A stretch of DNA of 64,000 nt from Gammaproteobacteria bacterium (lineage in GTDB: Bacteria > Pseudomonadota > Gammaproteobacteria > Chromatiales > Chromatiaceae), in NCBI GenBank assembly GCA_024275295.1, contig JAJRZI010000075.1, forward strand, positions 10,903 through 74,902. The letters are read 5' to 3'. A model generated the notes under the pieces. The model worked only from the letters and a program-made list of their open reading frames with translations. It did no database searches and was not told the origin of the DNA. Positions 34,742 through 64,000 of this stretch are shown here, in pieces. The translations under genes were made by a program, and so were the position numbers. Each line of letters begins with the position of its first letter. Within the stretch, counting starts at the first letter, position 1.

Positions 34742-37700
34742 CTAGGGTTGTCCGATGAGTCCAGGCGGCCTGGATCTCCTTGAACCTCCGCCTTTCCTTG
34801 AACTGGGCGAATGGAAGTATTTGAATTTTTGCAGGCTATCCAATCCATGACAGTTGCGGCAGATGTTTTTTGAGCTTTTAAAGCGTAAAAAACTGGTTCT
34901 ATTGGTGCCTTCAGTGGGTTTGCCCGGCCCTTTTTTGTCGATACCGGGTGCCCAGATGTGTGGCTCATGACAGGTTGCACAGGTGATCACGCCTGCCTGC
35001 ACTTCGTTACCCTCTTTATCGTAGATAGGCGCATAGCTTTCGTTACCGATACGGTGTGCCTCTGTAACCAATACCTTTCTGGGGTGGATAAATCGAGTGA
35101 CAACCTTCTTGCTGCCGACCCCGTTTTTTGCGTGACAGCCCAGGCACAGGCGCTCCTGTTTTAGCTCACTGCCGCTGCCTGGGGTACGTCCCCAGAGTTG
35201 GTAGCCATCTTTTTGTGCGTTGTGAGGCAGGTGACAGGCGCTACAGATGCCGCTCTGAGCAACGGACTGTTTGAGCCTGTTTTTGCTTTCAGGTGCCACG
35301 ATGGACATGTCATGATCGGTGCCCTGGATGAAGGCTTTTTTGGCGTGGCAGGTGGTGCAGAGCTGTGAATTGGGCAGGTTTGATTTTCTTAAGAAGCTGT
35401 TGCCGCCATCACCTTCCAGATTTTTTCTGGCTGACCCCGGGCCTGCCTGTTCAGGGTCCCAAACGTGGACGTTATGGCAGGTTGGGCAGGTGATGTCGCC
35501 GTCGGGCGTGCGGAATCCATCCCGCGTAAACAGTGGGAATTCGGTTCTGACCTTGGCTTCGCTGTCATAGATATAGAAGGACGCTGTCTCGCCCTGGAGG
35601 GATGCTTTTGCCTCATTCACCCGTTTGTTCATCGGGTGATTGGGGCCTCGCAGGCTCTTTTTTGAGGCCGATTTTCTGCGCCAGTGACAACCGCTGCAAC
35701 GCGCCTCGTTGCGGTTCTCTCCAAGACCCACGCTACGGCTCCACAGGCCATTGCCCCAGGCGTTGTGTACCACATGGCAGGCGCTGCAGACACCTGCTTC
35801 GGCTACCGTCTGTTGCTCCATATTGCGTTCATTGGGTGCGGTAATGCTCAGGTCGTGATCTGTGCCAACAACGTAGCTGTTCTGTTTGTGGCAGGCGGCG
35901 CAGAGTTTGGCTGAGTCATCATTCGGGATGCGCAGAAAGCTGGTCATGCGATCACCCTCCACCTTCATGCTTCCTGGCCCCTTGGGGGTTGCCGGATCCC
36001 ATTGGTGAAGATTGTGACAGGTGGCGCAACTGATGAAACCGTCGGGACTTTTGCTGCCATCCTTGGCGAAGAGTGGCAGTATCTCTTTTGCGGCGGGATC
36101 TATCTTGTCAACGTACAGTTGCAGTGGATGGCTCTCTTTACCCGTGGTTTTATCCTCGGCCAGCCCCCCTTTTTTGTGGCAGTCATTGCAGGCGCGCTCA
36201 ATGATTTCGAGTCCGGCCCCCGTATGTCTAGCCCACAGTTTGTCCCTGTTGGCATTATGCGGTGTGTGGCAGGCACCGCAGACGCCGCTCTACTTGAGGC
36301 TTTGGTCTTTGATGTTTTTCTCGTCCGGTGCGGCCAGTCTCAGGTCATGCTTGGTGCCGGCAATGGCGGCCTGGGCTTTGTGGCAGCTTTGGCAAAGCTT
36401 CCATGTGGTGACAGATTTGCGTAGAAAACTGTTGTTTCCATTGCCGGGAACCTCAGGATGCCCCGGGTTGTTGGAGTCCGGACTCCAGCGGTGGACATCA
36501 TGACAGGTGGGGCATCTGACCTTGCCATTGGCGGATCGTTTACCCGCTTCGGTAAAGAGTGGGAGTGATTCGGGTGCATTTTCCAGTGTGCTGCCAACCG
36601 GGTGTGTCTTGTCGCCAATCAGCGCCTCTTTGGCGATGCCGTCCTTGTTGTGGCAGTTGCTGCACATCTCATCAATAGAGCCGTTGATGGGGTCTCTGGC
36701 CCACATCTTTGGTCCCTGTCCTTTGTGCATGAAGTGGCAGGCGTTGCATGCTCCCTTGTCGATGGTTTTAACTCCGGCGGAGTTTTCATCCTCAGGGAAC
36801 AGCTCGCTGATATCGTGCCGGGTGTAATAGATCGACTCCTTTGAGGTGTGGCAGGTCAGGCAGAGCGGGTCTCCTCCTGCAAACTGCACCAGCAGATGGT
36901 TGTCATCGGTACCATTGTGGGGGGAGTGACAGGTGCGGCAGTTGATGTATTTGCCCTGTCCCAGGTAGGGCTTCTCGCCGTTGTCCCACTTTTCAGGTAG
37001 ATCGGCATCTTTGGGCAGCTCCACATCGATCGGATGAGTGTAGCGCCGCAGTGCCTTGTTGCTGCTCAGGTCGGGTGAGAGGCCATGGCATGCTTCACAT
37101 AACATGGATTGGGAGAGGGATGCCTCACTGTTGGGTATGATGAGGAAATCATCATTGGTGCTGCCGTGGGGAGTATGGCAGGATTCGCAGATAACGGTGC
37201 TGTTTTTGCCAGGTTTTCCACCGGCCTGAATCACCTGATCTGGAAATTCCTTAAACTCAATATTGATGGGGTGGTTGCCTTTTTTGGGGCCGGTCTCCTT
37301 GCCTTTATGGCATCTCTGACAGATGGATGAGTCGATGTTGGGTTCGCGCAGGAATATGGCGGATGCCATGGTGATACGGGTATCTACACCATGTGCAGAG
37401 TGACAGGTGACGCACTGCATCCTGCCTTCGGGATCCAATGGGTACTCTTCAGGGATCGTGACCTTTTCCGAGGGTACGACTCCCGCCTTGTGCCGGTTGG
37501 TCTCCCAGACCCGGAAGCGGGAGTCGGAGATGGAGCCATCGTGGCAGCTGTAGCACATCATCTCTTTTGAGACGGCGCGTTCCTCCGGGATCTCCAGCAG
37601 GTAGCGCTGCCCCTTATCCTCAAGAAAATCCTCCATCCATCGGAAGTGACACATGGCGCACTCTTTGGATGAGTTTTGCCCACCTTCCGGTGCTGCCCAG

Positions 37701-37765
37701 GATATTGTGGGTGCTAAAATGAGAGCCAGTAGCGGAAAAAGCCAGATCAGTCGCAGCTGTTTCAT
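34742..37765 (-). pseudogene. 24-haem c-type cytochrome (about 1006 aa), one frame interrupted by an in-frame TAG at 36290-36292 (pseudogene, read-through or sequence error)
   Basis: ORFs 36290..37765 (12 CxxCH, signal peptide) and 34742..35968 (9 CxxCH) are in the same frame. I translated 35969-36289 codon by codon and found no other stop and three more CxxCH (CGACH, CNDCH, CATCH). Paralogue of 57658..60729. Confidence 0.75.
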
Positions 37766-38733
37766 GATGCGATGCGGTAGACGCTGATGCGGTTGGCGAA
37801 CATCTCTACCACGTAGAAGAGGCCGTTGTTATCAAAATAGAGCCGGGTCGGGGTGGTGAAGCGTTTGACCTTGCCCTGGCCATCACTGAGTACGGCCTGG
37901 AATTTGCCTGTTTTGTCGAACATCTGGATCACGCCCAGATAGGAGTCGGCAATAAAGACCTGCCCTTTGGCGTTGACGGCTACCCCTTTGGGGCGGAACA
38001 GCTCACCCTTTTCAACCCCCCAGCCGCCAATATCGTAGCCAAAGTTGAATCCCTCTTCGGGCAGAATGGTACGTATGCGGGTGTTGATGACATCGACAAT
38101 ATAGAGGGTGCCTGCAGAGTCGATATAGAGGGAGAAGGGCCAGCGGAAGCCATCCTGTTTATGGCTCATGCCGCCGATCGTGCGGATGAACTTTTGCTCT
38201 TTCAGGCTATAGACCAGTACCTGGTGATTCTCATTATCGACCACATAGAGCAGTTGACGTTGGTTGTCGATGGCCACATCGGTGGGGTCGGGGCGCTTCT
38301 GTTTCTTGCTCTGAGGGAGTTTGATCTGATCAAGATGTTTGCCATCAGGGCTGTAGATCTGCACGCGGGCATTGCCTGAGTCGGCGATGTAGACATTATC
38401 TTTGGCATCGAGGGTCATGCCCAGAGGGTAGCTAAGCTCATCGTCTGCGCTGCCACCCCTGCCAAAACTGCCCTGAAATTTGCCTTCATAGCTGTAGATA
38501 ACAACCCGGTTTGAGACGCCATCCAATACCAGGATGCGGTTGTCCGAGGTCATCCGCACATTGCTGGGATGGCGCAGGCCGAGCTTGTCGCCACCTTCGA
38601 TGACTCTGACGGGTTCAACAGGCAGCAGATCGCCGCGGGGGGCGGCGCTGAGCTGTTGGGTAATGAGTAGCAGGCAGGCAGCGGTGAGCAGGGCTGTGGC
38701 CCTCACGGTGTTGAGCAGGGTGAGATTACTCAT
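37762..38733 (-). CDS. NHL-repeat six-bladed beta-propeller protein (periplasmic)
   Basis: ORF 37762..38784. ATG 38733 gives a signal peptide (MSNLTLLNTVRATALLTAACLLL) and an ATGA overlap with the octahaem gene. Repeats such as YIADSGNARVQIYSPDGK and YVVDNENHQVLVYS. ATGA overlap with the 24-haem gene at 37762-37765. Confidence 0.85.
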   Translation of the reverse strand: MSNLTLLNTVRATALLTAACLLLITQQLSAAPRGDLLPVEPVRVIEGGDKLGLRHPSNVRMTSDNRILVLDGVSNRVVIYSYEGKFQGSFGRGGSADDELSYPLGMTLDAKDNVYIADSGNARVQIYSPDGKHLDQIKLPQSKKQKRPDPTDVAIDNQRQLLYVVDNENHQVLVYSLKEQKFIRTIGGMSHKQDGFRWPFSLYIDSAGTLYIVDVINTRIRTILPEEGFNFGYDIGGWGVEKGELFRPKGVAVNAKGQVFIADSYLGVIQMFDKTGKFQAVLSDGQGKVKRFTTPTRLYFDNNGLFYVVEMFANRISVYRIAS

Positions 38734-39686
38734 CACGGCAGCTGGAATCCCTTGATATCTTTTGTATCGTGGCAACCACGACAAATGCCGGCATTCTTTT
38801 GGCTAATGCGCAGGCGCTTATGTGAGTCTGCGCCAGCATTGGCGCGTTCCCTTATCTGTACGCCCAGCTCATGTGGGTTGTGGCAGGTGCCACAGAAAAC
38901 ATTGCCGGTCACGATCTCCAGAGGCAGAATGACATCCTTCTCGGTGGCGATGATCTTGTTGGCCATCTTTGCGTCGGGTGCGGCTGCATGATAGATAGGG
39001 TCACCATTCTCCTTATAACCCATTACGCAGCCTACGGCATAGGCATCATCGGTGTGGCAGCGCAGACAGAGTTGGTCGAAACGACTCTGATTAAAAGTAA
39101 CGTCTTCAATGCTCTTTGCGTGCTTTCGGTCAGGGGTTATGTCGTGACAGTAGGTGCAAACATCTTCTTTAAGTTCGCCCTCTTCGTTGATCTGATTATG
39201 TGGGTTGAGTTTTTTGTATTTGGATCTGTCGTGGCAGTTGTAGCAGAGGTCGGTTCGGTTTTTGTAGGGTGCGCCCCGATGAAAGAGTCGGTTCTCTTTC
39301 TTACGATAAAATTCACTGTTTAGGCATTGGTAGCTGATCTTATGACAGACGGCGCAGGTGATTTGATTGTCGCCATTAAGGCCAGAAAGAAACTCCTCTG
39401 GCATCTTCTCCATCATGGTTCGAGGTGGAATCATGCAGGTTGCGTGGATGTATTTGTCTTTTGAAATGGTAGCGTGGCAACGGTTGCATAGCATGTTGAT
39501 GTCGCCATTAAAACGGAGTGCTGTTCTTCCGCCTCGTTCGGGTATCTGCTCATGACACTCCAGGCACTTGTCCTGTGTTTCTGACCAGTGTGGATAGATG
39601 TTCAGGTTTTCACTTGCAAAGGTTTGTGAGAACAGCAGTGAGATGAGCAGTGTTGTTATAAATAGTCGCATCAGTTTATCTTTCAT
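38733..39686 (-). CDS. octahaem c-type cytochrome (periplasmic)
   Basis: Start at ATG 39686 (MKDKLMRLFITTLLISLLFSQTFA signal peptide). 8 CxxCH. Co-linear homologue of 52034..53041. Confidence 0.85.
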   Translation of the reverse strand: MKDKLMRLFITTLLISLLFSQTFASENLNIYPHWSETQDKCLECHEQIPERGGRTALRFNGDINMLCNRCHATISKDKYIHATCMIPPRTMMEKMPEEFLSGLNGDNQITCAVCHKISYQCLNSEFYRKKENRLFHRGAPYKNRTDLCYNCHDRSKYKKLNPHNQINEEGELKEDVCTYCHDITPDRKHAKSIEDVTFNQSRFDQLCLRCHTDDAYAVGCVMGYKENGDPIYHAAAPDAKMANKIIATEKDVILPLEIVTGNVFCGTCHNPHELGVQIRERANAGADSHKRLRISQKNAGICRGCHDTKDIKGFQLP

Positions 39687-39959
39687 AGCGTTATATCTTT
39701 TCCCCAAGCCATCCTTGCCACCAAAATAGACCTTGCCAGAAGCAACGGTGGGGGAGGTGCAGATCAGATCACCGGCATCAAATTCCCACAGTGGCTCAAG
39801 CGGTGGTGCAAGATCAGGGGTCGATTGGGTGTTGAGTTGTGGGTTGTAGAGGAACATGGGCCAGGAGGCGGACTCTGCTGCTCCAGGAGGATGCCATATT
39901 GTCAGAAGGAGTGACGATAGCCACTTATGAGGTTTAGTTGTTGCCAATAGTGCGCTCAC
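39687..39959 (-). pseudogene. remnant of the 5' end of a PQQ/BamB-like beta-propeller gene, in frame with the octahaem ORF
   Basis: The upstream 91 codons of ORF 38733..39959 read ...SWPMFLYNPQLNTQSTPDLAPPLEPLWEFDAGDLICTSPTVASGKVYFGGKDG. This aligns with the N-terminus and first blade of 50786..51916 (WNALNGGSRHLSHSPDVIPLEPKNVWQVGIARRFYASPVVIGDRIFVAARGK). Confidence 0.45.
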
Positions 39960-40084: not shown

Positions 40085-40909
40085 CTACGGCGTGTTTCTT
40101 CTGCCTCGGGTTCTGGAGGCAGGGTCAAACATCGTTGGCAGGTAAAATTTACTGTACTTGGTGATCATACTCGCCACTTCGCCGGTCTCCAAGCGGTTTG
40201 CAACCACGGGTGAGTAGAGGAGCGATCTGAAGTTCAGCAGACCGTTCTTTGTATGACACTCATCACAGAAGATGGGTTTTTGTGAGATCTCCTTATGGAT
40301 GCGAACCTTTGCCTCTGCCTGTTGGTCGGCGTTAAAGGTGGCGCGTAGGCTGAGGTACTCCTCAATGAATGCCTTGTCGGCAGATTCATCTAGCCGTCGG
40401 CCTATGCCATCCTCCGCAACTTTGATAGGTACAATCATGGCACCATAGCTGCCCGGTTTGCCCTCAAGCCTGCTGAGTTCCATGCCGGTTTTTTTATTGA
40501 GCCATTTATAGACGATGTGGTCACTCTCCGTGGGTCTGATATGGCAGGTTTCGCAGGCGGTGAAAAAGGCATGGGCATTCAGGAAAGCCCGTACATCGGG
40601 TGCCTTTGAGTGCGGATAGTTGCCGTGACACTTCAGGCAGAGTGAGATGGACTCGGCACCTTCCAGTACAGCCTGGTCAACATTATGAAAATGTTCTCTT
40701 GAGATGCCTGCGCCAGTGGCAATCTGTTCCAGCGCGGTCTGATCACTGCTGCTGACCAGGCCGGTGTCAAAGGTGGCACGGAAGAAGGTGATCCACAGCA
40801 ACCAGAGTGCAAAGCCGGCAAGCAGGATGAATATGGATGCCATCAGGATATCCACCAGTAACCGTTTAAAGGGGGGCATGTCGGTGTGATGATTATGCAT
40901 TGTCGCCAT
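40085..40909 (-). CDS. membrane-anchored trihaem c-type cytochrome
   Basis: 274 aa. One N-terminal TM (LLVDILMASIFILLAGFALWLLWITFF). CLKCH, CETCH, CDECH. Homologue of 55469..56383. Confidence 0.75.
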   Translation of the reverse strand: MATMHNHHTDMPPFKRLLVDILMASIFILLAGFALWLLWITFFRATFDTGLVSSSDQTALEQIATGAGISREHFHNVDQAVLEGAESISLCLKCHGNYPHSKAPDVRAFLNAHAFFTACETCHIRPTESDHIVYKWLNKKTGMELSRLEGKPGSYGAMIVPIKVAEDGIGRRLDESADKAFIEEYLSLRATFNADQQAEAKVRIHKEISQKPIFCDECHTKNGLLNFRSLLYSPVVANRLETGEVASMITKYSKFYLPTMFDPASRTRGRRNTP

Positions 40910-41615
40910 TCCCCTCTGATGTTGCTTCTGCTTTTTCTGTGGCCAGCCGCTCCAGTTCGCGTTCGTACCAGAGTCCGTGCTCTTCTTTCATCATGCTTTC
41001 TGAGATCTTGCCGTCAATAAATGCTTTGTTCATAGGGTAGACATGGGGGTTGTAATGCACTGAAAAGATATGCCCGATAATGATGGCAAGGGCTGCCAGG
41101 GTGGCTTCACCCAGGTGGAAGGTGTCTGCGATATCCAGCCAAAATTTGGGCCAGTATTGCTCTGTCCACATCATGGTGCCGGTGACGATCACGATGAACA
41201 TGCCAAAGTAGACGGAGAAGTACTCTACTTTTTCCAGATAGGTGAAACGCTCCATTTTAGGTCGTGCCTCTCTGAAACCCAGCATGTAGCTGACGTTTTG
41301 TACAGCAAAGGTGGCGTCGCTCATGCGTGGCAGCATGTCTTTGATCCAGCTGCGTCCCTCGGCTTGTAAAACAACATAGCCCAGGTGGTAGAGGCAGACC
41401 AGTGTTACAGAGACCCCCGCTATCCGGTGCACAATGCCGCGCCAGTAGAAGATGGTGTCACCCGCACTGCCAAACATCTCAATGACCCAACGCTCGCCCA
41501 TCAGCATGAACCCGGTGAGGATCAGCAGGCCGGTGGAGACGAAGAGTATGACGTGTTGTATGCGTTGGCTTTTGGTAAGCCGAACAAAGCTTCTTTCATT
41601 TTTGCTATGGCTCAT
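40893..41615 (-). CDS. dihaem cytochrome b, FdnI/HydC (Ni_hydr_CYTB) type
   Basis: 240 aa with 4 TM. RIQHVILFVSTGLLILTG signature and conserved His in TM2 and TM4. ATGA overlap with the upstream cytochrome c gene. Confidence 0.8.
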   Translation of the reverse strand: MSHSKNERSFVRLTKSQRIQHVILFVSTGLLILTGFMLMGERWVIEMFGSAGDTIFYWRGIVHRIAGVSVTLVCLYHLGYVVLQAEGRSWIKDMLPRMSDATFAVQNVSYMLGFREARPKMERFTYLEKVEYFSVYFGMFIVIVTGTMMWTEQYWPKFWLDIADTFHLGEATLAALAIIIGHIFSVHYNPHVYPMNKAFIDGKISESMMKEEHGLWYERELERLATEKAEATSEGNGDNA

Positions 41616-42739
41616 GATGTATGTCTCCCCAACTTGGCAGCTCTGAGGGCAATTTTGCGCTCTCTGTGTGTGGCGTAAAGATCGGCTAAACGGTGAAATC
41701 CCAGTCCTCCCACTACGGCGATAATTAGGATCTTATAGAACAGTGCGATCATCTCAATGACCCAGGCTTGGAACTCTTGCTCCTCTTGATAGATGGTTAC
41801 GCCATCTTCATCTACACGCTCAGTCATAACGTTGGATGGGTGCGCTTTACCTTTGTTGGCAAAGGCTTCCTGTGCATCGGCATGACAGCCTGATTGCCGA
41901 CAGTCTCTCAGTTTGTTGTCGGGATGGACAGGCGATGAGCTATCGGTGTGAGAGATAATTCGGTGAGGTGAAAATCCCAGCTGATAGGGCGCATGACAGT
42001 TCAGGCAGTTGGCGACATCTTCATCACCATAGACGATGGCTTTGCCGTGGAAGGTGTCTTTAAAGCCAATAACCACGTCCACTTCATGCCGATCCATCTT
42101 CTCTTTGTCGGCATGACATTTGCTGCACAGGGCGACGACCTGCTTGGATGATCTACGGGTTTGGGCACGGTAGAACATGTGCTTGTAGAAGCGATTGGTC
42201 CAGGCCTCTGATTCGTGGCATTCCAGGCAGACCTTGATGAACTGCATTGATTTCAGCTCTTTACCAATACCGATCTGGTAAGGCTTGTTGGTGTGGCAGT
42301 CCTTGCATTTGGGTAGATCCTTGATGAGGTCGGGTTTTTTTGTACCATCCGGGCCATGGGCGCTCTTTCTCAGGTCGTTCACGATGGATTTGTGTGAGAA
42401 GGCCCGCCCGGTGGATGGGTCATTCAGATGGCAGTCGGTGGCGCAGTCTACGTTTTTGACATCGGTATGAGGTATCTCTTCAACGCCGGTGTGGCAGTTT
42501 TTACATCTGAGCTTGCCGTGGTAAGAGGCTTTGAAGAGCTCTTCATTGACATAAAAGATGCGCTTGACCGCCTTCTGTTCCTCATTTTTGGCATACCGCC
42601 CCAGGCCAGCGTATTTATGGCACATGAGGCAGTTTTCATCATCTACGGCCATGGCAGCAGCCGGGATGAAAAGAGTAAGAAAGGCGGTCAGCAGAAATAG
42701 GGCAACGGTAATGTCCCGTGCGGTGTGCTTGGTCTTCAT
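41612..42739 (-). CDS. multihaem c-type cytochrome with C-terminal membrane anchor (8 haem sites: 6 CxxCH + CX3CH + CX4CH), CbcA-like
   Basis: ORF 41612..42772. Signal peptide from ATG 42739. C-terminal TM (VIEMIALFYKILIIAVVGGLGF). Homologue of 53076..54185. Confidence 0.8.
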   Translation of the reverse strand: MKTKHTARDITVALFLLTAFLTLFIPAAAMAVDDENCLMCHKYAGLGRYAKNEEQKAVKRIFYVNEELFKASYHGKLRCKNCHTGVEEIPHTDVKNVDCATDCHLNDPSTGRAFSHKSIVNDLRKSAHGPDGTKKPDLIKDLPKCKDCHTNKPYQIGIGKELKSMQFIKVCLECHESEAWTNRFYKHMFYRAQTRRSSKQVVALCSKCHADKEKMDRHEVDVVIGFKDTFHGKAIVYGDEDVANCLNCHAPYQLGFSPHRIISHTDSSSPVHPDNKLRDCRQSGCHADAQEAFANKGKAHPSNVMTERVDEDGVTIYQEEQEFQAWVIEMIALFYKILIIAVVGGLGFHRLADLYATHRERKIALRAAKLGRHTS

Positions 42740-44718: not shown

Positions 44719-44735
44719 GCTGCGACCAGTGGCCC

Positions 44736-45881
<1,146 letters not shown>

Positions 45882-47053: not shown

Positions 47054-47363
47054 TTGGGCTTTGAAAGTGGAGTCTTATTAAAATTCCATTATTTCAGGAT
47101 TGATAAGACTAAGTTGCTTATATAATTTGATTGTTTTTTTTTAGTAAAGCACTGATAACAGCATGAAATATAAAAACATTATGCTTTATTATGAGATGCT
47201 CAAGCACAAGATGTGTCATGGAGTAGAATCTAGCTAAAGGCAAAGTGCTGTGCTAAAGTTGAATGTAAGGGCTGGCTCTTAATACGCACGGCAGGGCGTG
47301 GGTAAGCTGAATTGAGTATACTGTTGTTACAGCGTTACAGCATATTAATTGCGGGGGGTAAAA

Positions 47364-48137: not shown

Positions 48138-48162
48138 CTAGGAGAATTTACTCCCGCATTAC

Positions 48163-48192
48163 AAAAAAGAGGGCTATTAAGCCCTCTTTTTT
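48163..48192 (+). terminator. rho-independent (bidirectional-looking) terminator
   Basis: AAAAAA-GAGGGCT-ATTA-AGCCCTC-TTTTTT. Confidence 0.8.
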
Positions 48193-54278: not shown

Positions 54279-55295
54279 ATGAAGCTGTCCAATGATGCAA
54301 ATAAGGTGCTGGGAACTTTTCTGCGCCAATATAAAATTCCAACGGAAGATGTAAATGATCTTGAAGAGATCGTTTCCATGATGCCGGAGGACAGAAAACA
54401 GATATACAAGAATGTGCAATCAAATCCAGTTGGGGATCTGTTTCGCTACTCTGTGCATATCCGTATCCAGCATTTACTGACCTTTACAACCTTTCTGCTG
54501 CTGGCATTTACGGGGTTGCCTATCCACTACAATGATGCGTTTTGGGCTGTGCCATTCAATGATCTACTGGGTGGCGTAGAGGTTACACGTGTTATTCACC
54601 GTACCCTGGCAACATGGATGGTGCTCTCTATGGTCTACCATCTCTTTACTGTTATTGGCGGAACCTTGCAGAAGATGGTAGAGGGCAAATTCGATATTGG
54701 CCGGAGCATTTTGCCTATTTTAAAGGATGCGAGGGACTTTGCTGCAGATATGGCTTACTTCGCTGGGCAGCGTGACAATCGTCCTGAGATGGATAAATTC
54801 ATGTATAAGCAGAAGATCCATTACTTTGCTGCCGCCTTTGGTAATATCGTGATGGTGATATCGGGATCTAGTTTCCTATTCCCCGAGTTCTGGAATAGCA
54901 TTTTGCCGCCTGATATCGCCTCCCATTTCCAAGAGATGATGCGGCTGTCGCATCCCCATGAGGCGTTGCTCGCCTTGTTGGTTATCGCATTCTGGCACTG
55001 GTATAACGTGCATCTCGCGCCGGGTCGTTTTCCGATGCAGTGGACATTTCTGACTGGTAAGCTGACAAGAGAACACCAGATTGAAGAGCATTTCCTTGAG
55101 TACCTCCGGTGCTTGGCTTCGCTTCCAGAAGAGAGGTCATATCTGCGAGAGGTGCTAGTCAGTAAGGGATTGGTCTCTGCTACAAAAGAGATAGATGCGC
55201 GCCAAAATTTCTTGTTTGATCAGCATCGCCAGTGGATCAAGGAACAGACGGAGTTGGGAGCACAAGGAGATGTGCTGGAAGATAGACAATCATGA
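54279..55295 (+). CDS. dihaem cytochrome b, FdnI/HydC type (extended N- and C-termini)
   Basis: 338 aa. RIQHLLTFTTFLLLAFTG. Homologue of 40893..41615. Confidence 0.8.
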   Translation: MKLSNDANKVLGTFLRQYKIPTEDVNDLEEIVSMMPEDRKQIYKNVQSNPVGDLFRYSVHIRIQHLLTFTTFLLLAFTGLPIHYNDAFWAVPFNDLLGGVEVTRVIHRTLATWMVLSMVYHLFTVIGGTLQKMVEGKFDIGRSILPILKDARDFAADMAYFAGQRDNRPEMDKFMYKQKIHYFAAAFGNIVMVISGSSFLFPEFWNSILPPDIASHFQEMMRLSHPHEALLALLVIAFWHWYNVHLAPGRFPMQWTFLTGKLTREHQIEEHFLEYLRCLASLPEERSYLREVLVSKGLVSATKEIDARQNFLFDQHRQWIKEQTELGAQGDVLEDRQS

Positions 55296-55408
55296 TGTCA
55301 CAGCTGACAAAAGGGCAAAAATTCATAGCATATGGATCTCTTCTCTTTGTGTTGGCTTGGACAGTCTTTGGTGTCTATGCCATTTGGCTAATGACTTCTG
55401 AAGGTTGA
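55292..55408 (+). CDS. possible 38-aa single-TM peptide
   Basis: Below the ORF-track length cut-off. ATGA overlap with the cytochrome b stop. Sequence MMSQLTKGQKFIAYGSLLFVLAWTVFGVYAIWLMTSEG. Confidence 0.35.
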   Translation: MMSQLTKGQKFIAYGSLLFVLAWTVFGVYAIWLMTSEG

Positions 55409-55468: not shown

Positions 55469-56383
55469 ATGGCTGAAACAGTAGAACTCGATGCCATTTT
55501 TATCGCGCTGGCGGTAACACTGTTTGTGTTTTTCGTAACTGCCGTTATGGTGATTATCGATCACAAGGCAAAAATACCTGGAAAAGAGACGGCTGATTTT
55601 TTCAGTGTTTCAGGTATTCGACGGAACCACCCGGCATGGGCATGGATGGTATCGGTATTTTTGTGGTTTATTATTGGCAGCCTATTGGTGATTGTTTCCT
55701 ATAACATGCTGTCACATCTATGGGTACATGAAGAGCCTGTCGAGCGCTCTTTCCTGTAAAAGGTCTCTTTTGAAGGCGACCTTGAGCGCATCAGACATTT
55801 CCATAATTCCCCTAAAGTAGCGGCCTATTCAAAGGGTAAACAGCCTGTCTGCTTCTACTGCCATGGTGAATTTCCACATGCTAAACGCCCAATGGTACGC
55901 ACCTTGTTGAATATGCATACCCAGTTCGTTGGGTGTATGACCTGCCATGCAAACAATGAGAAGATTCCAGAAGAGGAACTTACATTTCGCTGGCTTAATT
56001 ACTCAGGAATCAGGGTTAACGGGCCGCAGTTTGGCACGGCTTATGATGAAGAGACAGGCGATCTCATCGGGACAGATGATCAGTACTCCAAAATTGTTGC
56101 CTACCGGAAAAAAGCAAATGGTGAGGAAGAGTTGTTGGAAATCACAGAAGATGCGCCAGAAGCTGCTGAGTTTATTAACATGTGCGGACAACTGACTACC
56201 CAGCAACAGGGTTCTGTGAAAAAGATGTTTCACACCATCGTTAATCCTATTGGCCGATTCTGTACGCGTTGTCATGTAGCAGAAGAGGGTAAGGGTTACC
56301 TGCCATTTCGAGAGCTTGGATTTTCGGATGCCAGAGCATTGGGTCTGACCAACCTTAATATTGCGGGTTTGGTTCAGAAGTAG
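55469..56383 (+). pseudogene. membrane-anchored trihaem c-type cytochrome, frame interrupted by in-frame TAA at 55757-55759 (and possibly continuing past TAG 56381-56383 to 56533)
   Basis: ORFs 55469..55759 (2 TM) and 55892..56383 are in the same frame. Codons 55760-55891 contain no stop and no ATG/GTG/TTG, yet encode the conserved RHFHN...CFYCHGEFPH first haem site seen in paralogue 40085..40909. Confidence 0.7.
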
Positions 56384-56557
56384 AAAGAGTTCTATATGGA
56401 GCTGGTATTTTTGGGCAAAGAAGATGATGAAGAAACCAAGGCTTTAGTTGGCGAAGATTCAGATCTTCCAGAGATGGATGACAATATGAAGAATGATCCA
56501 CGCGGCTGGTGGCGTCAGGGTGCTGACGAGTAAGTTGCTTAAGGCATAATTAGCTAA

Positions 56558-56713: not shown

Positions 56714-57655
56714 TTGAATTACAGAAATCGGTTCCTTGGAACCAATCTTCTAATCGTGACTTTGTTGTTGCTTATCAGCAGCAGCATTGCCGCAAAGCAG
56801 ACCATACCTTTAGGTAAGGCTGAACATCTGTTTGATATTCAGTCAGCGCCGGATGGCCCCCTCTCTTTACCGTCAGACGTTGCAATTGCAAATGATAACC
56901 GGATTTACATTGTGGATGGCGGCCATCACCGTGTGTTGGCGTATGGGCCAGATGGAAAATTTCTCTTTTCATTCGGAAAAAGAGGACGAGGCAAGGCTGA
57001 GTTCATGTGGCCACTGGGGATTGATGTAGATAAGGCCGGGTTGGTTTATGTTACTGATAAGGAGAATCACCGGATCCAGGTATTTGATCGCGATGGCGGG
57101 CATCAATTCAGTTTTGCAGTTAATAGAAAAGATGGCACGCCAGGGACGCCAATTGATGTTACGGTGAGTGCCAAGACAGGGCTTATATTTGTAACTGAAA
57201 ACTCACAACATCGTATCCTGGTATTTGATATAGATGGAACAAAGCTAGGCGGATGGGGTAAACGAGGTGTTCGGCAAAGGGAGTTCCGCTATCCAGGATC
57301 TATCCTCGTGCAGGATGGGAATGTTTATGTGGTTGATGTTCTGAATACCGTTATCAAAATATTCGATGAACGAGGCAAGTACCAATACAAAGTGGGTGAA
57401 TGGGGTGTATTGCCGGGTCAGTTCTACCGTCCAAAAGGTGTGGCTGTGGATAGCCAGGGTTTGATATATGTGACAGATAGTTATATGGATGTAGTTGAAG
57501 TCTTTGATAAAGGGTATAAATTTACCCATGTTCTTGCATCGGGCAAACAAAAATATAAATTCTATGCGCCTGCTGGTATTGCGATAGATGGTAGGGATAG
57601 ACTGTATGTTGCAGAGATGTTGGGGAATAAGGTTTCGGTATTTAAACTGCGATAG
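56714..57655 (+). CDS. NHL-repeat beta-propeller protein
   Basis: 313 aa (TTG start) with a signal peptide. Repeats YIVDGGHHRVLAYGPDGK, YVTDKENHRIQVFDRDG, FVTENSQHRILVFDIDG, YVAEMLGNKVSVF. Confidence 0.85.
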   Translation: MNYRNRFLGTNLLIVTLLLLISSSIAAKQTIPLGKAEHLFDIQSAPDGPLSLPSDVAIANDNRIYIVDGGHHRVLAYGPDGKFLFSFGKRGRGKAEFMWPLGIDVDKAGLVYVTDKENHRIQVFDRDGGHQFSFAVNRKDGTPGTPIDVTVSAKTGLIFVTENSQHRILVFDIDGTKLGGWGKRGVRQREFRYPGSILVQDGNVYVVDVLNTVIKIFDERGKYQYKVGEWGVLPGQFYRPKGVAVDSQGLIYVTDSYMDVVEVFDKGYKFTHVLASGKQKYKFYAPAGIAIDGRDRLYVAEMLGNKVSVFKLR

Positions 57656-57657
57656 CC

Positions 57658-60600
57658 ATGTTTGCTCGATATCTACTCATCCTTGTTTTTCTGCTGGTTG
57701 GATCATCATTAACCTTTAATGATGCTGAAGCTCGAAGTATCGCAGCTAAACGTGAATGTTCAATCTGCCACATTATGTGGCTGGATGACTTTCAGCGGCC
57801 TGAGGCAACGCCACTTATCCCCTATGATCCAAATCCTGTGATGAACACAGGTAAGCAGGATGTTGTCAGTAATGAGCGCAACTGCTTCTCCTGCCATGAT
57901 GGCTTTGTGCTTGATTCCCGGTTTGTATGGCAAAACAAGCAGTATTCCCATCCGGTCGGTGTTGTGCCATCAGATAAAGTAAATCTGCCAACAGCGAATG
58001 AGGCACAGCTGCGACCAGATCTCAATCTTTTTCCGCTGAATAAAGATGGGAAGGTCTACTGCGGGACCTGCCATAGTGCGCATGGTGTGGATTGGAAGCA
58101 GGAGGCCTCTCCGGTCTTTCTGCGAGCCAAAAATATTGAGTCAAGTATCTGCCTTAACTGCCATAGAAATCGAAGTACCGGCCCAAAAGGTGGCAATCAT
58201 CCCATTCGCAGGAAACTGGAGAACATTCCAGCTGAATTGTTGGATAAGGGATCCAAGTTTGGCAAGGACAATATTATTATTTGTCAGTCATGCCATCGTA
58301 TCCATGGTGGACGTGACAAGAAGGTGTTGGTGGCCTCAAACAGGAACTCTGCGCTGTGCGGCAAGTGTCACAGTGATCGTTATGCCAAGGATAGGGTTGA
58401 GTCTACAAAGATGGGAACCCACCCGGTTAATATCACCTCGAAAAAGGTCAAAATCCCCAAGGAGATTATTGACAGAGGTGGCAAGCTTGGGGAGAAGGGG
58501 CAGATCATTTGTCAGACATGTCACCGTCCACATCTGGCAGAGAAAAAAGCCACTATTCTGGTTAAGAAAAATGGTAATGACTCGGCGCTTTGCCGGACAT
58601 GCCATCTGAAGGAGGGGCGGGTAAAAAATACCAAACATAATATGGTGCTGCAGGAGAAGGAGGTTAAGAACATACGTGGCCAGAAGGTGAGTGAGGCCGG
58701 GGTGTGCAGCGCCTGTCATCTTCCCCATAATGGAAATGGCCCAAGGATGTGGGCACGTAAGATTGGTGCTGGCCCTGAGAAAATATCGAGGCTGTGCCTG
58801 AGTTGTCACAGCAAGGGAAAGATTGCTGAGCACAAACAGGTTGGCTCGATCAGTCATCCTCTCGGGCGCAATATGTCCCGTCTGGGTGAAGCGGTGAAAC
58901 TCCCTGGGTTCACAGATGCCGGGTTGAAAAAAATAGGCGATATGAAGGGCAAAGTATCCTGCGCCAGTTGCCATAATCCGCACCAATGGGATCCTAAAAA
59001 CCCTGATAAATCATCTAAACCAGGTGAACCAAGTGATGCAAATAACCGCTTCCTGCGTGTAGCTAATAAAGGCTCTAATGCACTATGCCGTACCTGTCAT
59101 AAGGATAAGGCGGGTATAAAGGGAACCAAGCATGATGTAGCCACGATGGATGCTTCGGCAAAAAGTGAAAATGGAACCCCGGGGTTATGCAAAACCTGCC
59201 ATCTTGTGCATAAAGGAAAGGGGCCGCGTCTGTGGGCAAGAGCGCCGCTTAAAGGGGTTGATCCCATCTCGTCAATCTGCCTGAGTTGTCATAATAAAAA
59301 AGGGTTAGGTAAAAAGAAAACCATTGGAGAGCATAGCCATCCTGTTAATGTGCCTCTGTCCAATCTGGGTATTGTCTCTTCAAATAACGGTTGGGTGATT
59401 GGCACAAAGAAAAAACCTGATGAAAGATATAAAAATAGAAAATTAAAAGTGCTGCCGTTATTTGATGCGAAAGGTAAAAAAACAGCTGAAGATGGTCGGG
59501 TGACCTGTGCCAGCTGTCATAACCTGCACCGTTGGTCAGCTGCATCAAAGGCAGTTAAAGGTGCTGCACTGACCGCTGAAGGCGATGCAAAAACGAGTTT
59601 CTTGCGCATCTCCAACACTCAAAAAGCAGAGTTATGCATCAATTGCCACTTTGACAAGGGAGCAGTGGCCTTATCCAAACACAACCTGGCGATTACTGCA
59701 CCAGAGGAACGGAACAGCATCGGGCAGAAGGCCAAGGATATTGTGGTCTGTTTTAACTGCCATGTACCACACAATGCAGATGGGGCAAAGCTCTGGGGCA
59801 GGGGATTTGGCCCAGGTGGTGATAGGGCTGAATCAATGTGTCGAGAGTGTCACCGGGATGATGGTATTGCTAAAAATAAGCAGACAGGTGAGTTCACTCA
59901 TCCACTGCAGGCAAACATAAAAAAGGTTGGAGGAAGAACCAAATTGCCCTTATTTAATAAAAAGGGTGAGCGTAGCGACAGTAAATCTGGCTGAAGGGTC
60001 AGCTGTCCCTCCTGTCATAATCCTCATCAGTGGGATCCAGCAGATCCACTGAGTAAGGCCGGTGCCGATGCAAAGGTTGAAGGCGACGCAAATACCAGTT
60101 TCCTGCGTATGCCTGCTGCACCAGATGGGGCCTTGTGCGCGTATTGCCATCGTGACAAACGCTGGGTGAAGGGCACGGATCATGATCTTAGGGTGACTGC
60201 GCCAGAAGCTAAAAATCTACGCGGTGAAACCGTTCAGCAATCAGGTATCTGCCAGCAATGCCATCTGGTTCACAATGCAAGACAGGCTCTACGATTGTGG
60301 GCGCGTAAGCCAGGGCTTGGACAAGATATTAATGAACAGATGTGTCGAGGTTGTCATGATAAAGGCCTGGCAGCACAGCAGAAGATCCCGATAAAGAAAA
60401 ATCATCCGGCTAAGGTGAAGGCGCAGATTCTTCGGCAACGAGCCCGTCGAGGCCCGGTGCGTGGGTTTACCCCCCTATTTGATGAGGATGGAAAGAGAGC
60501 AAATACCGGTATTATCTCATGCCCCACTTGCCATAACCCACATCGCTGGAGTCCTGTAGTTATGGAATATGGTACAGGTGAGAATATTGAAGGTAATTCG

Positions 60601-60729
60601 CGAAGTAGTTTCCTACGCAATCGTAGTAAATTGGCATTGTGCTCAAACTGTCATGGCATGGATGCGTTATTCAGATATAAGTACTTCCATGGCAAGTCCT
60701 CGCGTAAAAAACATCAGTTATATCGCTGA
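57658..60729 (+). pseudogene. 24-haem c-type cytochrome (about 1022 aa), one frame interrupted by an in-frame TGA at 59992-59994 (pseudogene, read-through or sequence error)
   Basis: ORFs 57658..59994 (18 CxxCH, signal peptide) and 60109..60729 (5 CxxCH, no signal peptide) share a frame. Codons 59995-60108 have no stop and encode RVSCPSCHNPHQWDP...NTSFLR, the missing fourth haem of a repeat unit. Confidence 0.75.
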
Positions 60730-61012: not shown

Positions 61013-61891
61013 ATGGTTGATATGCCATGTAGAGTGCAGATTATCTGCTTTTTGTTGCTGTGTTGCTTAATTCAGGCGGCAATGGCTGGTAATGGCTTGG
61101 GTACTTTGAGCAATACTATTGTAGGCTCAAAACATGATCTGAGCATAAGTAACTACTACGGAATAGATGCATCCTATGGGGTAACCCCTTCAGATCAAAT
61201 CTGTGTATTTTGCCATACACCGCATGGGGCCAATGTTGATCTAAATAATGATGGCACTGTTGATACAGATGATCCTATTCGCCCGTCTGCGCCCCTTTGG
61301 AATCGCAATATTTCTGATACCAGCTTATCGGCTAGCTTTACCCCCTATGGTAGTGCGCCAGGCTATCAAAGCTACACGCTAAATACTGTTTTTGAGGCGG
61401 GTTGGGTGCCTAGTCCTGTATCGCTGGTTTGCTTGAGCTGTCATGATTCAGCTTTGGCAAATAGTGGCAGTTCAGGTATTGTCACCACTTCTGGGTCAGA
61501 GGGCGATACTCACAATTTGGTCAATATGCCTAATCGTGCTGGCGCTGAAACGCCAAACTGTGGCGCCTGCCACCCTGATGGTGGAACTGTTCCTCCTACT
61601 TGGTGGCAGATCGGCCCAGACATGTCGAATGACCACCCTATTTCAATGTCATATCCGCCAAATTATTCAGGTTGGGCAGATGATTTTTATCCTGCACCAA
61701 ATGCAACAAATGGTTGGACGGGTGTTAAGTTATATCAAGGCCGAGTGGAGTGCCCAAGCTGCCATAATCCGCATAATCCCGGTGAGATTGTCTATATAGA
61801 CAACTCATACGCCGTCCCGCTTAAATATGCGCCATTCCTGCGCACAACACTTGATGGCAGTACACTTTGTGTGACCTGTCATAAGAAGTAG
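61013..61891 (+). CDS. pentahaem c-type cytochrome, same small secreted family as 47364..48137
   Basis: 292 aa. GSKHDLS...QICVFCHTPH...PLWNR. CVFCH, CLSCH, CGACH, CPSCH, CVTCH. Ends LCVTCHKK. Confidence 0.8.
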   Translation: MVDMPCRVQIICFLLLCCLIQAAMAGNGLGTLSNTIVGSKHDLSISNYYGIDASYGVTPSDQICVFCHTPHGANVDLNNDGTVDTDDPIRPSAPLWNRNISDTSLSASFTPYGSAPGYQSYTLNTVFEAGWVPSPVSLVCLSCHDSALANSGSSGIVTTSGSEGDTHNLVNMPNRAGAETPNCGACHPDGGTVPPTWWQIGPDMSNDHPISMSYPPNYSGWADDFYPAPNATNGWTGVKLYQGRVECPSCHNPHNPGEIVYIDNSYAVPLKYAPFLRTTLDGSTLCVTCHKK

Positions 61892-62056: not shown

Positions 62057-63097
62057 GTGACAATTTTTCGCTGGCTACTACTCGTTATGGTGATGGTTGT
62101 GCCCTGTGCAGGGTTACAGGCTGCATCGCCCCAGTCTGAGGAAGAAGATATTATCGATTTGGTGTGGCCACCCAAGCCTATGCCAGCACGTATCCGCTAC
62201 CTGAATGCAATTGCCAGCTTTGATGATATTAAGTATGAAAAAGGTTTTTGGGAAAAGTTTTGGGATCTCATTAGAGGGGAACAACAGAATAGCCAGCTCA
62301 AACCCACAGCTGTGGCTGTAGATGATAAGGGGCGGATGAGTGTTGCTGACCCAACAGGAAAAGTGGTTCACGTTTATGATCAAAAAACGGGTGATTATTG
62401 GGTCATAGAAGAGGCAGATGTTCCTCTAATATTGCCCGTTGGACTGGCGGTAGATGAAAAAGGCAATATCTATGTTTCTGATGGTGGCCTGAAGAAAGTA
62501 TGCGTTTTTTCTCCAAAAGGTAAATATCTGAGGTCGATTGGGGATGCTGAGCAGATAGAACGCCCCACAAGTATTGCTATTGATACAACCAGACGTGTGC
62601 TTTATGTGGTCGATACGCCTGCTCATACGATCAGGGTTTTCAATCTGGATGATGGCTCTTTTATCCGTACTATTGGAAAGCGTGGGCGGAAAGAGGGAGA
62701 GTTGAACTTTCCTGGTTATGTCTTTGTTGGGCCAAATGGATATCTGTATGTTAATGATGCGCTAAATGGGCGGATTCAGGTTTTTGATACTGAGGGTAAG
62801 TTTGTTAACACATTTGGTCGATTTGGTGATGCTTCGGGTACCTTTGCTACGCCAAAGGGCATCGCTGTGGATAGTGATAGAAATATATATGTGGCAGATG
62901 CTGGATTCGATAATATCCAGATTTTTAATAGTCAGGGCCGTTTGTTGTTGGACTTTGGCCGGTCTGGTCAGGCACCGGGTGAATTCTGGACACCCTCGGG
63001 CTTATACTTTGATAGTAAAGACCGATTATATGTAGCCGATGCATACAATAGACGGATACAGATTTTTCAGTATTTGAAGACAGCGGTGAAGCAATGA
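62057..63097 (+). CDS. NHL-repeat beta-propeller protein
   Basis: 346 aa (GTG start) with a signal peptide. Repeats YVSDGGLKKVCVFSPKGK, YVVDTPAHTIRVFNLDDG, YVNDALNGRIQVFDTEGK, YVADAGFDNIQIFNSQG, YVADAYNRRIQIFQ. Confidence 0.85.
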   Translation: MTIFRWLLLVMVMVVPCAGLQAASPQSEEEDIIDLVWPPKPMPARIRYLNAIASFDDIKYEKGFWEKFWDLIRGEQQNSQLKPTAVAVDDKGRMSVADPTGKVVHVYDQKTGDYWVIEEADVPLILPVGLAVDEKGNIYVSDGGLKKVCVFSPKGKYLRSIGDAEQIERPTSIAIDTTRRVLYVVDTPAHTIRVFNLDDGSFIRTIGKRGRKEGELNFPGYVFVGPNGYLYVNDALNGRIQVFDTEGKFVNTFGRFGDASGTFATPKGIAVDSDRNIYVADAGFDNIQIFNSQGRLLLDFGRSGQAPGEFWTPSGLYFDSKDRLYVADAYNRRIQIFQYLKTAVKQ

Positions 63098-64000
63098 GAA
63101 TGCAGTTTTATTCCATATCGTGGTGGCAGTTGTTGGGGGTGTGCTTGTTACTTGGTTGCATCGGCCTGGTAGATGCCGGCATTGAAACCACGAAGCATAA
63201 TCTTTCAGCCAGTTCTGGGAATACACACAAAGCTACAGCTGAAGAAAGAATCTGTCTTATGTGCCACACGCCGCATAATGCCAATCCGGCAGGGCCACTG
63301 TGGAATCACCAACTCTCATCAAGTGGCACAACCTACACACCTTACAGTAGCAGCACACTCAATGCGGCGCCAGGGCAGCCAACAGGGGCATCAAAGCTCT
63401 GCCTTGCTTGTCATGATGGCACCATTGCACTAGGCGCGCTGCTTAATATGCCAGGGGCAATTCAGGGGTATGATGGGCTGAGCCAACCATTCTACAATGG
63501 TATTATCCCTGGTTTAGAGTCCTCGATGACGGGGGCTGCCAACCTGGGCATAGATCTTCGTGATGATCATCCCATCTCCTTTGTTTATGATCTCGCTTTA
63601 GCGGGTTATAGCCTGGAGTTTAATGACCCTGCAACCTTAACAGGCAATGTCCGCCTCGATGGTAATAATGAGCTGCAGTGCACCAGTTGCCATGATCCAC
63701 ACACTGATGTGAATCCTAAATTTCTGCGCATGCCATTTACTGATGTCGGGGGATTTGGTTCACCCCTCTGCCGCGAATGCCACAACAAAGATGGCTGGGG
63801 GCTGGGCAATAAACACCGTGATTCCATTGCCCAGTGGAATGGTACCGGCACCAACCCCTGGCATATCACAGGGCAGAATGTGGCAAATGATATTGGCTCC
63901 ACGCCCAAGATCAATGGTTGCGAGAACTGCCATCAGCCGCACAACAATCCCAACCTCAACGAACGGCTACTAAAAGGGGATGGTGAGTCGGGACTCTGCG
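63094..64000 (+). CDS. multihaem c-type cytochrome, 5' part only (runs off the right edge), same family as 47364 and 61013
   Basis: Not in the ORF track (open-ended). ATG 63094 overlaps the NHL stop (ATGA). Hand translation gives MRMQFYSISWWQLLGVCLLLGCIGLVDAGIETTKHNLSASSGNTHKATAEERICLMCHTPHNANPAGPLWNH... There are 5 CxxCH so far (CLMCH, CLACH, CTSCH, CRECH, CENCH). Confidence 0.8.
   Translation, partial: MRMQFYSISWWQLLGVCLLLGCIGLVDAGIETTKHNLSASSGNTHKATAEERICLMCHTPHNANPAGPLWNHQLSSSGTTYTPYSSSTLNAAPGQPTGASKLCLACHDGTIALGALLNMPGAIQGYDGLSQPFYNGIIPGLESSMTGAANLGIDLRDDHPISFVYDLALAGYSLEFNDPATLTGNVRLDGNNELQCTSCHDPHTDVNPKFLRMPFTDVGGFGSPLCRECHNKDGWGLGNKHRDSIAQWNGTGTNPWHITGQNVANDIGSTPKINGCENCHQPHNNPNLNERLLKGDGESGLC

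Follow-up and report, generated by a model that had tools for sequence, protein, structure and literature searches.

Cytochrome filaments have been studied almost exclusively in Geobacter and its relatives, and the electron route that supplies them from the inner membrane is still unsettled. According to the Desulfuromonas soudanensis preprint, a minimal omcE cluster encodes the filament subunit, a large beta-barrel, two beta-propeller lipoproteins and two multihaem cytochromes; the same work reports OmcE homologues in Pseudomonadota, variants with five CxxCH motifs, and glycosyltransferase, tetratricopeptide repeat (TPR) and regulator genes beside many of the clusters. Similar clusters have been described as Uet in 'Candidatus Tenderia electrophaga' and Occ in 'Candidatus Dechloromonas occultata'. 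At the inner membrane of Geobacter, CbcBA pairs a four-helix dihaem cytochrome b (CbcB) with a multihaem cytochrome c carrying a C-terminal anchor (CbcA) and works, at low potential, as a quinone-pool oxidoreductase in extracellular electron transfer, while the PCC3 system of iron oxidisers combines a porin, a periplasmic cytochrome with 21-27 haems (often 24), an extracellular cytochrome and an inner-membrane haem b protein (He et al. 2017). Here we compare these systems with a region of about 29 kb, positions 34742-64000 of a 64,000-nucleotide stretch of DNA (hereafter the window) from a gammaproteobacterium of the Chromatiaceae (assembly GCA_024275295.1, contig JAJRZI010000075.1, positions 10,903 to 74,902 of the forward strand).

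The region is a real and very haem-rich gene cluster, probably concerned with electron movement across the cell envelope. The balance of the evidence leans towards a reading in which it joins two independently conserved modules that together could connect the quinone pool electrically with the cell exterior. Module A is an OmcE/Uet/Occ-type set. Module B, present twice, consists of an anchored eight-haem cytochrome c, an FdnI-type cytochrome b and a membrane trihaem cytochrome c (together the bc unit), followed by an NHL propeller and a 24-haem cytochrome c. Genes of the OmcE filament family thus adjoin a complete candidate supply line, made up of a quinone-linked bc unit and a 24-haem periplasmic protein. 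The hosts are sulfur- and iron-oxidising Gamma- and Betaproteobacteria, and the cluster offers a route map for electron uptake or disposal in environmentally abundant lineages. Established at this point are homologies, motif conservation, the barrel fold and synteny statistics.

An earlier interpretation of the same DNA, made without database searches (the sequence-only reading), had counted 97 CxxCH and three CX3-4CH motifs in 11 cytochrome c genes. Our recount agrees: ten complete genes hold 92 CxxCH motifs and one gene running off the window end holds a further 5, and the three CX3-4CH motifs all fall within the two anchored cytochromes c. Also encoded are four NHL propellers, two cytochromes b, one PQQ-like propeller plus a remnant of another, and one barrel. 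Every open reading frame (ORF) listed in that interpretation was found at or near its proposed position, three of them interrupted by stop codons, and the Pfam annotation it had called for assigned NHL to four proteins, Ni_hydr_CYTB to both cytochromes b, a PQQ_2/BamB-like domain to 50786-51916, and Paired_CXXCH_1/Cytochrome_C7 to the cytochromes. When the proteins were scanned against NCBIfam, no model reached a whole-family cut-off and only a generic doubled-CXXCH domain model passed; NCBI rules would therefore give these genes generic protein names. An Rfam scan of 34-64 kb gave no match.

The OmcE-type module and its barrel

Module A occupies 45926-50765 and 61013 to the window end, on the plus strand. 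Its first gene (45926-47053) encodes an NHL propeller lipoprotein with the lipobox LSGC (Pfam NHL, 2.6e-36) and opens a conserved triad that continues with an OmcE-family tetrahaem cytochrome (47349-48137), a candidate filament subunit, and the barrel (49002-50765). The tetrahaem protein has four CxxCH motifs and four conserved distal histidines, and in a PDB sequence search it aligned over its full length with 7TFS (E=3e-27), which we take to be the OmcE of G. sulfurreducens, and with 9YUQ (E=4.4e-24). The latter is the OmcE bundle of Desulfuromonas soudanensis, as given in the data statement of the D. soudanensis preprint. Blocks common to the tetrahaem protein and the solved OmcE proteins include TKH(D/N)xSSG, CxFCHTPH, PLWN, CxSCHDG, NDHPVNF and PFLRxT..GSKLCxxCHxK, and across 44 non-identical tetrahaem homologues from related loci the four CxxCH motifs and the four extra histidines are at least 98% conserved. 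The distal part of the module begins with a five-haem OmcE-like cytochrome (61013-61891; 7TFS, E=1.1e-16; 32% identical to the tetrahaem protein) and a second NHL propeller (62057-63097; Pfam NHL, 3.6e-26) that is 41% identical to the first and has an unclear lipobox. It ends with the 5' part of an undecahaem cytochrome gene (63094-64000), which encodes an OmcE-like N-terminus and 5 CxxCH motifs before the window stops; full-length homologues in metagenome loci (568-726 aa) all carry 11 CxxCH motifs. In the closest relative, the genes next after the undecahaem gene encode ResB, a CcsA-type protein and a thioredoxin-like protein (locus L115, 10666-13194, a part that corresponds to sequence beyond the right end of the window); they make up a system II set devoted to cytochrome c maturation, of the kind reported downstream of Uet.

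The protein encoded at 49002-50765, proposed in the sequence-only reading as an outer-membrane barrel, is predicted to be just that and not a soluble or non-barrel protein. An AlphaFold2 model built from 35 sequences, including distant representatives, reached a predicted local distance difference test score (pLDDT) of 87.6 and a predicted template modelling score (pTM) of 0.71, and is all beta after the signal peptide, with 28 long strands; an earlier model from 12 close sequences (pLDDT 38.5) was unusable. The sequence has the hydrophobic periodicity typical of membrane strands at a significant level (z=3.9), and most members of the family end in ...FGxRF. The best fold match is MtrB (6R2Q_B; E=3e-9, template modelling (TM) score 0.44), followed by TonB-dependent receptors, LptD and pilus ushers. 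Comparison with PDB sequences, Pfam and NCBIfam gave no match, an exact look-up of the protein returned no record, and a word-index homologue search found 14 proteins, to which a wider alignment added none. The family is rare, with 31 representative clusters at E<=1e-3 among 1.84 billion; in the 20 clusters that were looked up, the named members were all 'hypothetical protein', and no link to UetC or to a Geobacter barrel appeared.

Gene order assigns the barrel a different partner from the 24-haem protein with which the sequence-only reading had teamed it. In 26/26 barrel loci with upstream sequence (22 after removal of identical copies), the gene immediately before the barrel gene is OmcE-like, and that gene is preceded in turn by an NHL-lipoprotein gene wherever barrel-locus sequence reaches that far. 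A barrel gene occurs within 10 kb of a 24-haem homologue, on the other hand, in only 5 of 31 loci. Because the triad is invariable while this second association is infrequent, we assign the barrel to the OmcE-like filament protein and not to the 24-haem protein. By the labels of their metagenome-assembled genomes (MAGs), the hosts of the barrel loci are Sedimenticola, other Gammaproteobacteria, Thiobacillus, Sulfuricella, Sulfurimicrobium, Rhodocyclaceae, Nitrosomonadales and Thiohalomonas. An Acidobacteriota MAG (L031) gave a weaker, partial barrel match and stands outside the 26 loci. Two further MAGs (L009 and L019) are labelled 'Candidatus Polarisedimenticolaceae', which NCBI taxonomy places in Acidobacteriota, and have synteny near-identical to that of the gammaproteobacterial relatives; probably the name was confused with Sedimenticolaceae, or the binning went wrong. 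An 865-bp non-coding gap (48138-49001) without an Rfam match separates the OmcE-like gene from the barrel gene, and at its start stand a hairpin and then a T-run (GAGGGC...GCCCTC TTTTTT, about 48167-48186); the gap measures 600-900 bp in close relatives, and the two genes almost abut in distant ones.

Module A thus resembles the OmcE clusters in having a homologous tetrahaem protein with four CxxCH motifs and four distal histidines, a large barrel gene beside the subunit gene, a propeller lipoprotein (LSGC, 45926-47053) with a second NHL protein of unclear lipobox (62057-63097), two further multihaem cytochromes, and a GT-C-like/TPR membrane protein and a regulator alongside. It differs in that the host is a gammaproteobacterium of the Sedimenticola neighbourhood and not a member of the Desulfuromonadia, and in that a nine-gene block (PQQ-like propeller, octahaem cytochrome, bc unit, NHL propeller and 24-haem cytochrome) separates the barrel from the rest of the module. 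With Uet and Occ it shares the tetrahaem cytochrome, a predicted 28-strand barrel, NHL propellers and an extracellular undecahaem cytochrome (here the gene at 63094, cut by the window end), and with Uet also the ccsAB-type maturation genes downstream, as seen in the closest relative. The peptidyl-prolyl isomerase, the triplet of c7-type trihaem cytochromes and the cupredoxin that belong to Uet/Occ have no counterpart among the domains found in 45.9-64 kb; conversely, Uet and Occ are without the two eight-haem proteins, the 24-haem protein and the cytochrome b present here.

The likeness to MtrCAB, MtoAB and PioAB is of a more general kind, consisting of a large outer-membrane barrel beside multihaem cytochromes, with MtrB as the best structural match. 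These systems have no detectable sequence relationship to the present one; their barrel has 26 strands against 28 here, and the cluster encodes no decahaem protein of the MtrA or MtrC type. Membership in MtrAB, MtoAB or PioAB was considered and rejected: the barrel has no NCBIfam or Pfam match, TIGR03508 scores far below its cut-off, and the likeness to MtrB lies at the level of the fold (TM-score 0.44). The opinion that none of these proteins resembles MtrA, MtrB or MtrC, formed earlier by eye, is upheld in that none reaches the NCBIfam thresholds for those families, the barrel being closest to MtrB in fold.

The 24-haem module and its two paralogous sets

Set 1 lies on the minus strand and begins, in the direction of transcription, with the anchored cytochrome c (41612-42739), which has eight haem sites (6 CxxCH, one CX3CH and one CX4CH), a signal peptide and a C-terminal anchor. 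It is followed by the FdnI/HydC-type cytochrome b (40893-41615; Pfam Ni_hydr_CYTB, 6.9e-12; TIGR01583, 2.3e-13, below cut-off), the membrane-anchored trihaem cytochrome c with one N-terminal hydrophobic helix and 3 CxxCH motifs (40085-40909), an octahaem cytochrome c with 8 CxxCH motifs (38733-39686), a six-bladed NHL propeller with a signal peptide (37762-38733; Pfam NHL, 1.3e-28), and its partner, the 24-haem cytochrome c (34742-37765; 1007 codons, 24 CxxCH, an in-frame TAG inside). Between the trihaem and octahaem genes lies the remnant of a PQQ/BamB-like propeller (39705-39959, minus strand), now in frame with the octahaem ORF. The remnant, spotted in the sequence-only reading, is real: in the related locus L001, set 1 has an intact PQQ-like protein, and the remnant aligns with roughly its first 86 residues (62% identity; tblastn, E=8e-28). 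Directly downstream of the set-1 24-haem gene, a gene at 34230-34712 (minus strand) encodes a secreted protein of 160 residues, to which Pfam assigned no domain.

Set 2 lies on the plus strand, between the barrel and the distal part of module A. It comprises a PQQ_2/BamB-like propeller (50786-51916; Pfam, 5e-57) paired with the octahaem cytochrome c, recognised by Pfam and by motif count (52034-53041); the anchored cytochrome c, again with eight haem sites (7 CxxCH and one CX3CH) and a C-terminal anchor (53076-54185); the FdnI/HydC-type cytochrome b (54279-55295; Pfam Ni_hydr_CYTB, 4e-8); the membrane trihaem cytochrome c, with two N-terminal helices, 3 CxxCH motifs and a TAA and a TAG inside (55469-56533); the NHL propeller (56714-57655; Pfam NHL, 2.2e-36), whose closest solved relatives are TRIM-NHL binding domains; and the 24-haem cytochrome c (57658-60729; 1023 codons, an in-frame TGA inside). 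The alignment of each protein with its counterpart in the other set, first made by eye, is borne out by BLASTP: every pair matches at 26-39% identity with E values from 1e-21 to 0, including the octahaem proteins at 39% and the 24-haem proteins at 37% over 1046 columns. The two sets are true and old paralogues and not the product of a recent duplication.

Both cytochromes b match Ni_hydr_CYTB, with the formate dehydrogenase gamma subunit model below cut-off, and six histidines in their membrane helices are invariant across all paralogues. Both eight-haem cytochromes c have a signal peptide and a C-terminal hydrophobic helix. The cytochrome c/b pair therefore has the CbcBA architecture, that is, a four-helix dihaem cytochrome b beside a multihaem cytochrome c that faces the periplasm and ends in a C-terminal helix. 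It departs from CbcBA in having eight haem sites where CbcBA has seven, in that module B always adds a third subunit, the membrane trihaem cytochrome, and in its tie to the NHL/24-haem pair. PCC3 is alike in the logic of its parts and in the idea of a periplasm-spanning haem chain, but it consists of four genes, its inner-membrane protein is unannotated and has five helices (two WX3HX13H motifs), and its extracellular cytochromes are of low complexity; NHL, OmcE-like and anchored cytochrome c genes do not feature in its descriptions. Membership in PCC3 was likewise rejected, as the cytochromes b here are members of the FdnI/Ni_hydr_CYTB family and the gene content differs. A 38-codon ORF (55292-55408, plus strand) overlaps the end of the set-2 cytochrome b gene, and its product is one hydrophobic helix, MMSQLTKGQKFIAYGSLLFVLAWTVFGVYAIWLMTSEG; the related loci L001, L002 and L004 have a gene call of 38 residues at the equivalent place, and the product may be a small subunit of the bc unit.

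The 24-haem family is widespread, with 716 homologues at E<=1e-10. Relatives that are full length and 35-58% identical come from Sulfuricella, Thiobacillus, Gallionellaceae, Thiohalomonas, Deltaproteobacteria, Thermodesulfobacteriota and Poribacteria, and all 24 haem motifs are invariant in the family alignment (A4); the large cytochrome has exactly 24 CxxCH motifs in 58 of 66 cases. Gene linkage was counted in 75 non-redundant metagenome loci. In 48/55 loci the gene immediately before the 24-haem gene is an NHL gene, so that the NHL protein, previously called an obligate partner, is close to being one for the 24-haem protein. A complete bc unit is found within 6.5 kb upstream in 36 of 43 loci, with 4 more partial, and an octahaem gene stands upstream of the 24-haem homologue in 21 of 31. 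Paired, diverged bc units side by side are the rule in this family, at least two such units being present near the 24-haem homologue in 18 of 31 loci. Module B is an independent unit: in a Deltaproteobacteria MAG the anchored cytochrome c, cytochrome b, trihaem, NHL and large cytochrome genes stand alone among housekeeping genes, and a Gallionellaceae MAG has two bc units with an NHL and a 24-haem gene and no barrel. In several independent lineages module B interrupts module A after the barrel, each time in the same order. In five variant loci (L051, L054, L061, L067 and L081) an NHL lipoprotein gene and an undecahaem OmcE-like gene lie directly upstream of the octahaem gene, bc unit, NHL gene and 24-haem gene, with no barrel or PQQ-like gene within 10 kb. 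The PQQ-like propeller travels with the octahaem protein in many loci, and one propeller per large cytochrome is a recurring theme, giving a concrete candidate role to the NHL and PQQ-like propellers that recur beside multihaem cytochromes. Searched against the PDB, the octahaem, anchored and 24-haem proteins gave marginal matches only.

The cluster had been put forward as an uncharacterised conduit. This description has to be narrowed for module A and for the cytochrome c/b pair, since OmcE filaments have been solved, clusters similar to module A have been described as Uet and Occ, and CbcBA provides a precedent for the architecture of the pair. In open-access text no paper was found on the bc-NHL-24-haem operon or on its fusion with an OmcE-type module, and for the 24-haem/NHL operons of the 716-homologue family no experimental work was found in the open-access literature.

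That the parts could span every compartment of the envelope, as suggested earlier, is plausible. In the proposed mechanism, cytochrome b would exchange electrons with quinol or quinone and the anchored eight-haem and trihaem proteins would relay them at the periplasmic face of the inner membrane. The 24-haem protein, perhaps with the octahaem protein, would then carry electrons across the periplasm. At a spacing of about 0.8-1 nm per haem (our own estimate), a chain of 24 haems would be about as long as the periplasm is wide, and might on that account bridge the distance from the bc unit to the outer-membrane module. The octahaem protein and its PQQ-like propeller partner would accompany the bc unit and the 24-haem protein. 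From there the route would continue through the outer-membrane barrel with the OmcE-like and undecahaem cytochromes and onward to an extracellular filament. By analogy with OmcE of Geobacter and Desulfuromonas, the tetrahaem protein may polymerise into an extracellular haem filament, which the barrel, aided by the propeller proteins, might export or anchor. In this scheme we infer filament formation, the localisation and contacts of the proteins, which cytochrome occupies the barrel, and the direction of electron flow. Most of the hosts oxidise sulfur or iron, which makes it equally plausible that electrons are taken up from minerals or Fe(II) and that they are disposed of to oxides. We speculate that the two bc units differ in the potential window in which they work, or in the direction in which electrons flow, like ImcH, CbcL and CbcBA in Geobacter. 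More speculatively still, and at odds we would put below even, the five-gene unit may be an undescribed, widespread 'inner-membrane-rooted haem cable' that runs from the quinone pool across the whole periplasm, with the NHL protein obligatory for assembly or docking and with an outer-membrane exit that varies by lineage, here an OmcE-type filament machine.

Interrupted genes and competing explanations

The sequence-only reading listed its genes as intact; three of them are not open in this sequence, namely both 24-haem genes and the set-2 trihaem gene. The set-1 24-haem gene is interrupted by a TAG (36290-36292, minus strand; context ...DQSLK*SGVCGACH...), and the set-2 24-haem gene by a TGA (59992-59994, plus strand). 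The set-2 membrane trihaem gene has a TAA (55757-55759) and a TAG (56381-56383), both on the plus strand, and its frame stays well conserved through to the true end at 56533. Orthologues are all intact (24-haem proteins of 1021-1023 aa with 24 CxxCH motifs; trihaem proteins of 353-361 aa). At the TGA and at the 56381 TAG, the aligned orthologues hold a sense codon one base removed (GGA to TGA; TAC or TAT to TAG), and the TAA would have arisen in the same way from GAA, to judge from the glutamate of the aligned orthologues; for the TAG at 36290 the sole aligned orthologue, a distant one, carries CGA. In comparison with the closest relative (JGI sample 3300005096), the set-2 24-haem gene has a ratio of nonsynonymous to synonymous substitution rates (dN/dS) of 0.056, and the set-2 trihaem gene one of 0.029. 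All genes tested fall between 0.03 and 0.22, with the interrupted genes within that range, which indicates purifying selection. Since the interrupted genes combine low dN/dS (0.03-0.06) with an absence of frameshifts, any inactivation must be very recent; the stops are either very recent mutations or sequence errors. Recoding of the stop codons, for instance as selenocysteine, was rejected as unlikely, because three different stop codons are involved and the aligned orthologues have ordinary glycine, glutamate and tyrosine. If the stops are real, both 24-haem proteins and the set-2 trihaem protein are truncated in this genome.

Several points weigh against a working route from the quinone pool to the cell exterior. 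Four stop codons break three genes in this sequence, and no cluster of this particular type is known to have been studied by experiment. Module B mostly occurs without a nearby barrel, and so may be purely periplasmic or may couple to conduits encoded elsewhere. The localisation calls come from simple hydropathy and lipobox rules, and the links to Uet, Occ, GSU0612-0619, osc, CbcBA and PCC3 rest on architecture together with the OmcE match in the PDB. The interruptions give some weight, well short of an even chance, to the view that the cluster is a decaying relic in this genome and that its pathway no longer works: two of the stops (the TGA and the 56381 TAG) lie one base from an orthologous sense codon, and the TAA would; the set-1 PQQ-like propeller is cut down to 86 codons; and no obvious case of a comparable interruption was seen in the 34 kb upstream, where the scan was less sensitive for lack of orthologues for comparison. 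The same stops are, however, equally explicable as sequencing, assembly or consensus errors, and the selection ratios and unbroken frames described above, together with an intact module A and a wholly intact set-1 bc unit, speak against decay.

Granting a functional cluster, the fold of the barrel invites a classical porin-cytochrome conduit of the Mtr/Pcc kind, in which the barrel would sheathe the 24-haem or octahaem protein and pass electrons to surface cytochromes, leaving the OmcE-like protein as an accessory. MtrB, its best structural match, does sheathe MtrA; a 28-strand pore is wide enough for a cytochrome; and in most expanded loci the octahaem gene lies two genes downstream of the barrel, a position that recalls the octahaem OmaB and OmaC of the Geobacter Pcc complexes. 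A cytochrome-holding pore was also proposed for UetC by the Uet authors. We nevertheless regard such a conduit as unlikely. With the barrel near 24-haem homologues in 5/31 loci and the octahaem gene in 21/31, neither cytochrome depends on this barrel, whose strict partners are the OmcE-like tetrahaem protein and the NHL lipoprotein; the TM-score to MtrB is low and the strand numbers differ, and no MtrA, MtrB or MtrC family model reaches its cut-off. The rarity of a neighbouring barrel lends itself instead to a reading of module B as a periplasmic respiratory or electron-storage system, either a quinol-linked haem 'capacitor' or a soluble-substrate oxidoreductase whose propellers would bind the substrate or act as catalytic subunits, that neighbours the OmcE module incidentally. 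Module B does occur alone among unrelated housekeeping genes, its carriers include sulfur-oxidising denitrifiers, and pairs of a beta-propeller and a haem protein are common in periplasmic enzymes. This too seems improbable to us: the nearest relatives of the NHL proteins are binding propellers without a catalytic function, such as TRIM-NHL and PknD, Pfam and NCBIfam scans found no catalytic domain in any module protein, 24 invariant haem motifs far exceed what electron entry into a simple enzyme needs, and the insertion into module A recurs in the same order in several independent lineages. The joining of an OmcE-type module to an inner-membrane and periplasmic supply line thus remains our preferred reading.

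Genomic surroundings

Between set 1 and module A lie two minus-strand genes that are conserved in close relatives. One (42940-44718) encodes a multi-pass membrane protein with C-terminal TPR repeats, recognised by TPR matches, and a GT-C/PMT_2-like N-terminal domain (PMT_2, E=1.6e-5, 25.6 bits against a cut-off of 26.1). The other (44736-45767) encodes a LysR-family regulator and is divergent from the NHL-lipoprotein and OmcE-like genes. The cluster is chromosomal; the genes upstream include pgi, lptF/G, two-component systems, a group-4 Hyf/Ech-type hydrogenase, trkH, malic enzyme and uvrB. The hydrogenase genes form a group-4 membrane-bound [NiFe]-hydrogenase-like operon (13422-20644, plus strand) with Proton_antipo_M, NADHdh and a fused Complex1 30/49 kDa protein with a NiFeSe_Hases match, and are preceded by a sigma-54 two-component pair (9141-11961) and a major facilitator superfamily (MFS) transporter gene (11986-13425).

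Base composition was compared between 12000-22000 and 34000-64000 of the window. The G+C content is 0.51-0.55 over set 1 as against 0.42-0.48 over module A and set 2, and the sets may accordingly differ in origin. Over the Hyf/Ech-type hydrogenase and MFS genes it is 0.58-0.65, with a strong skew of T over A.

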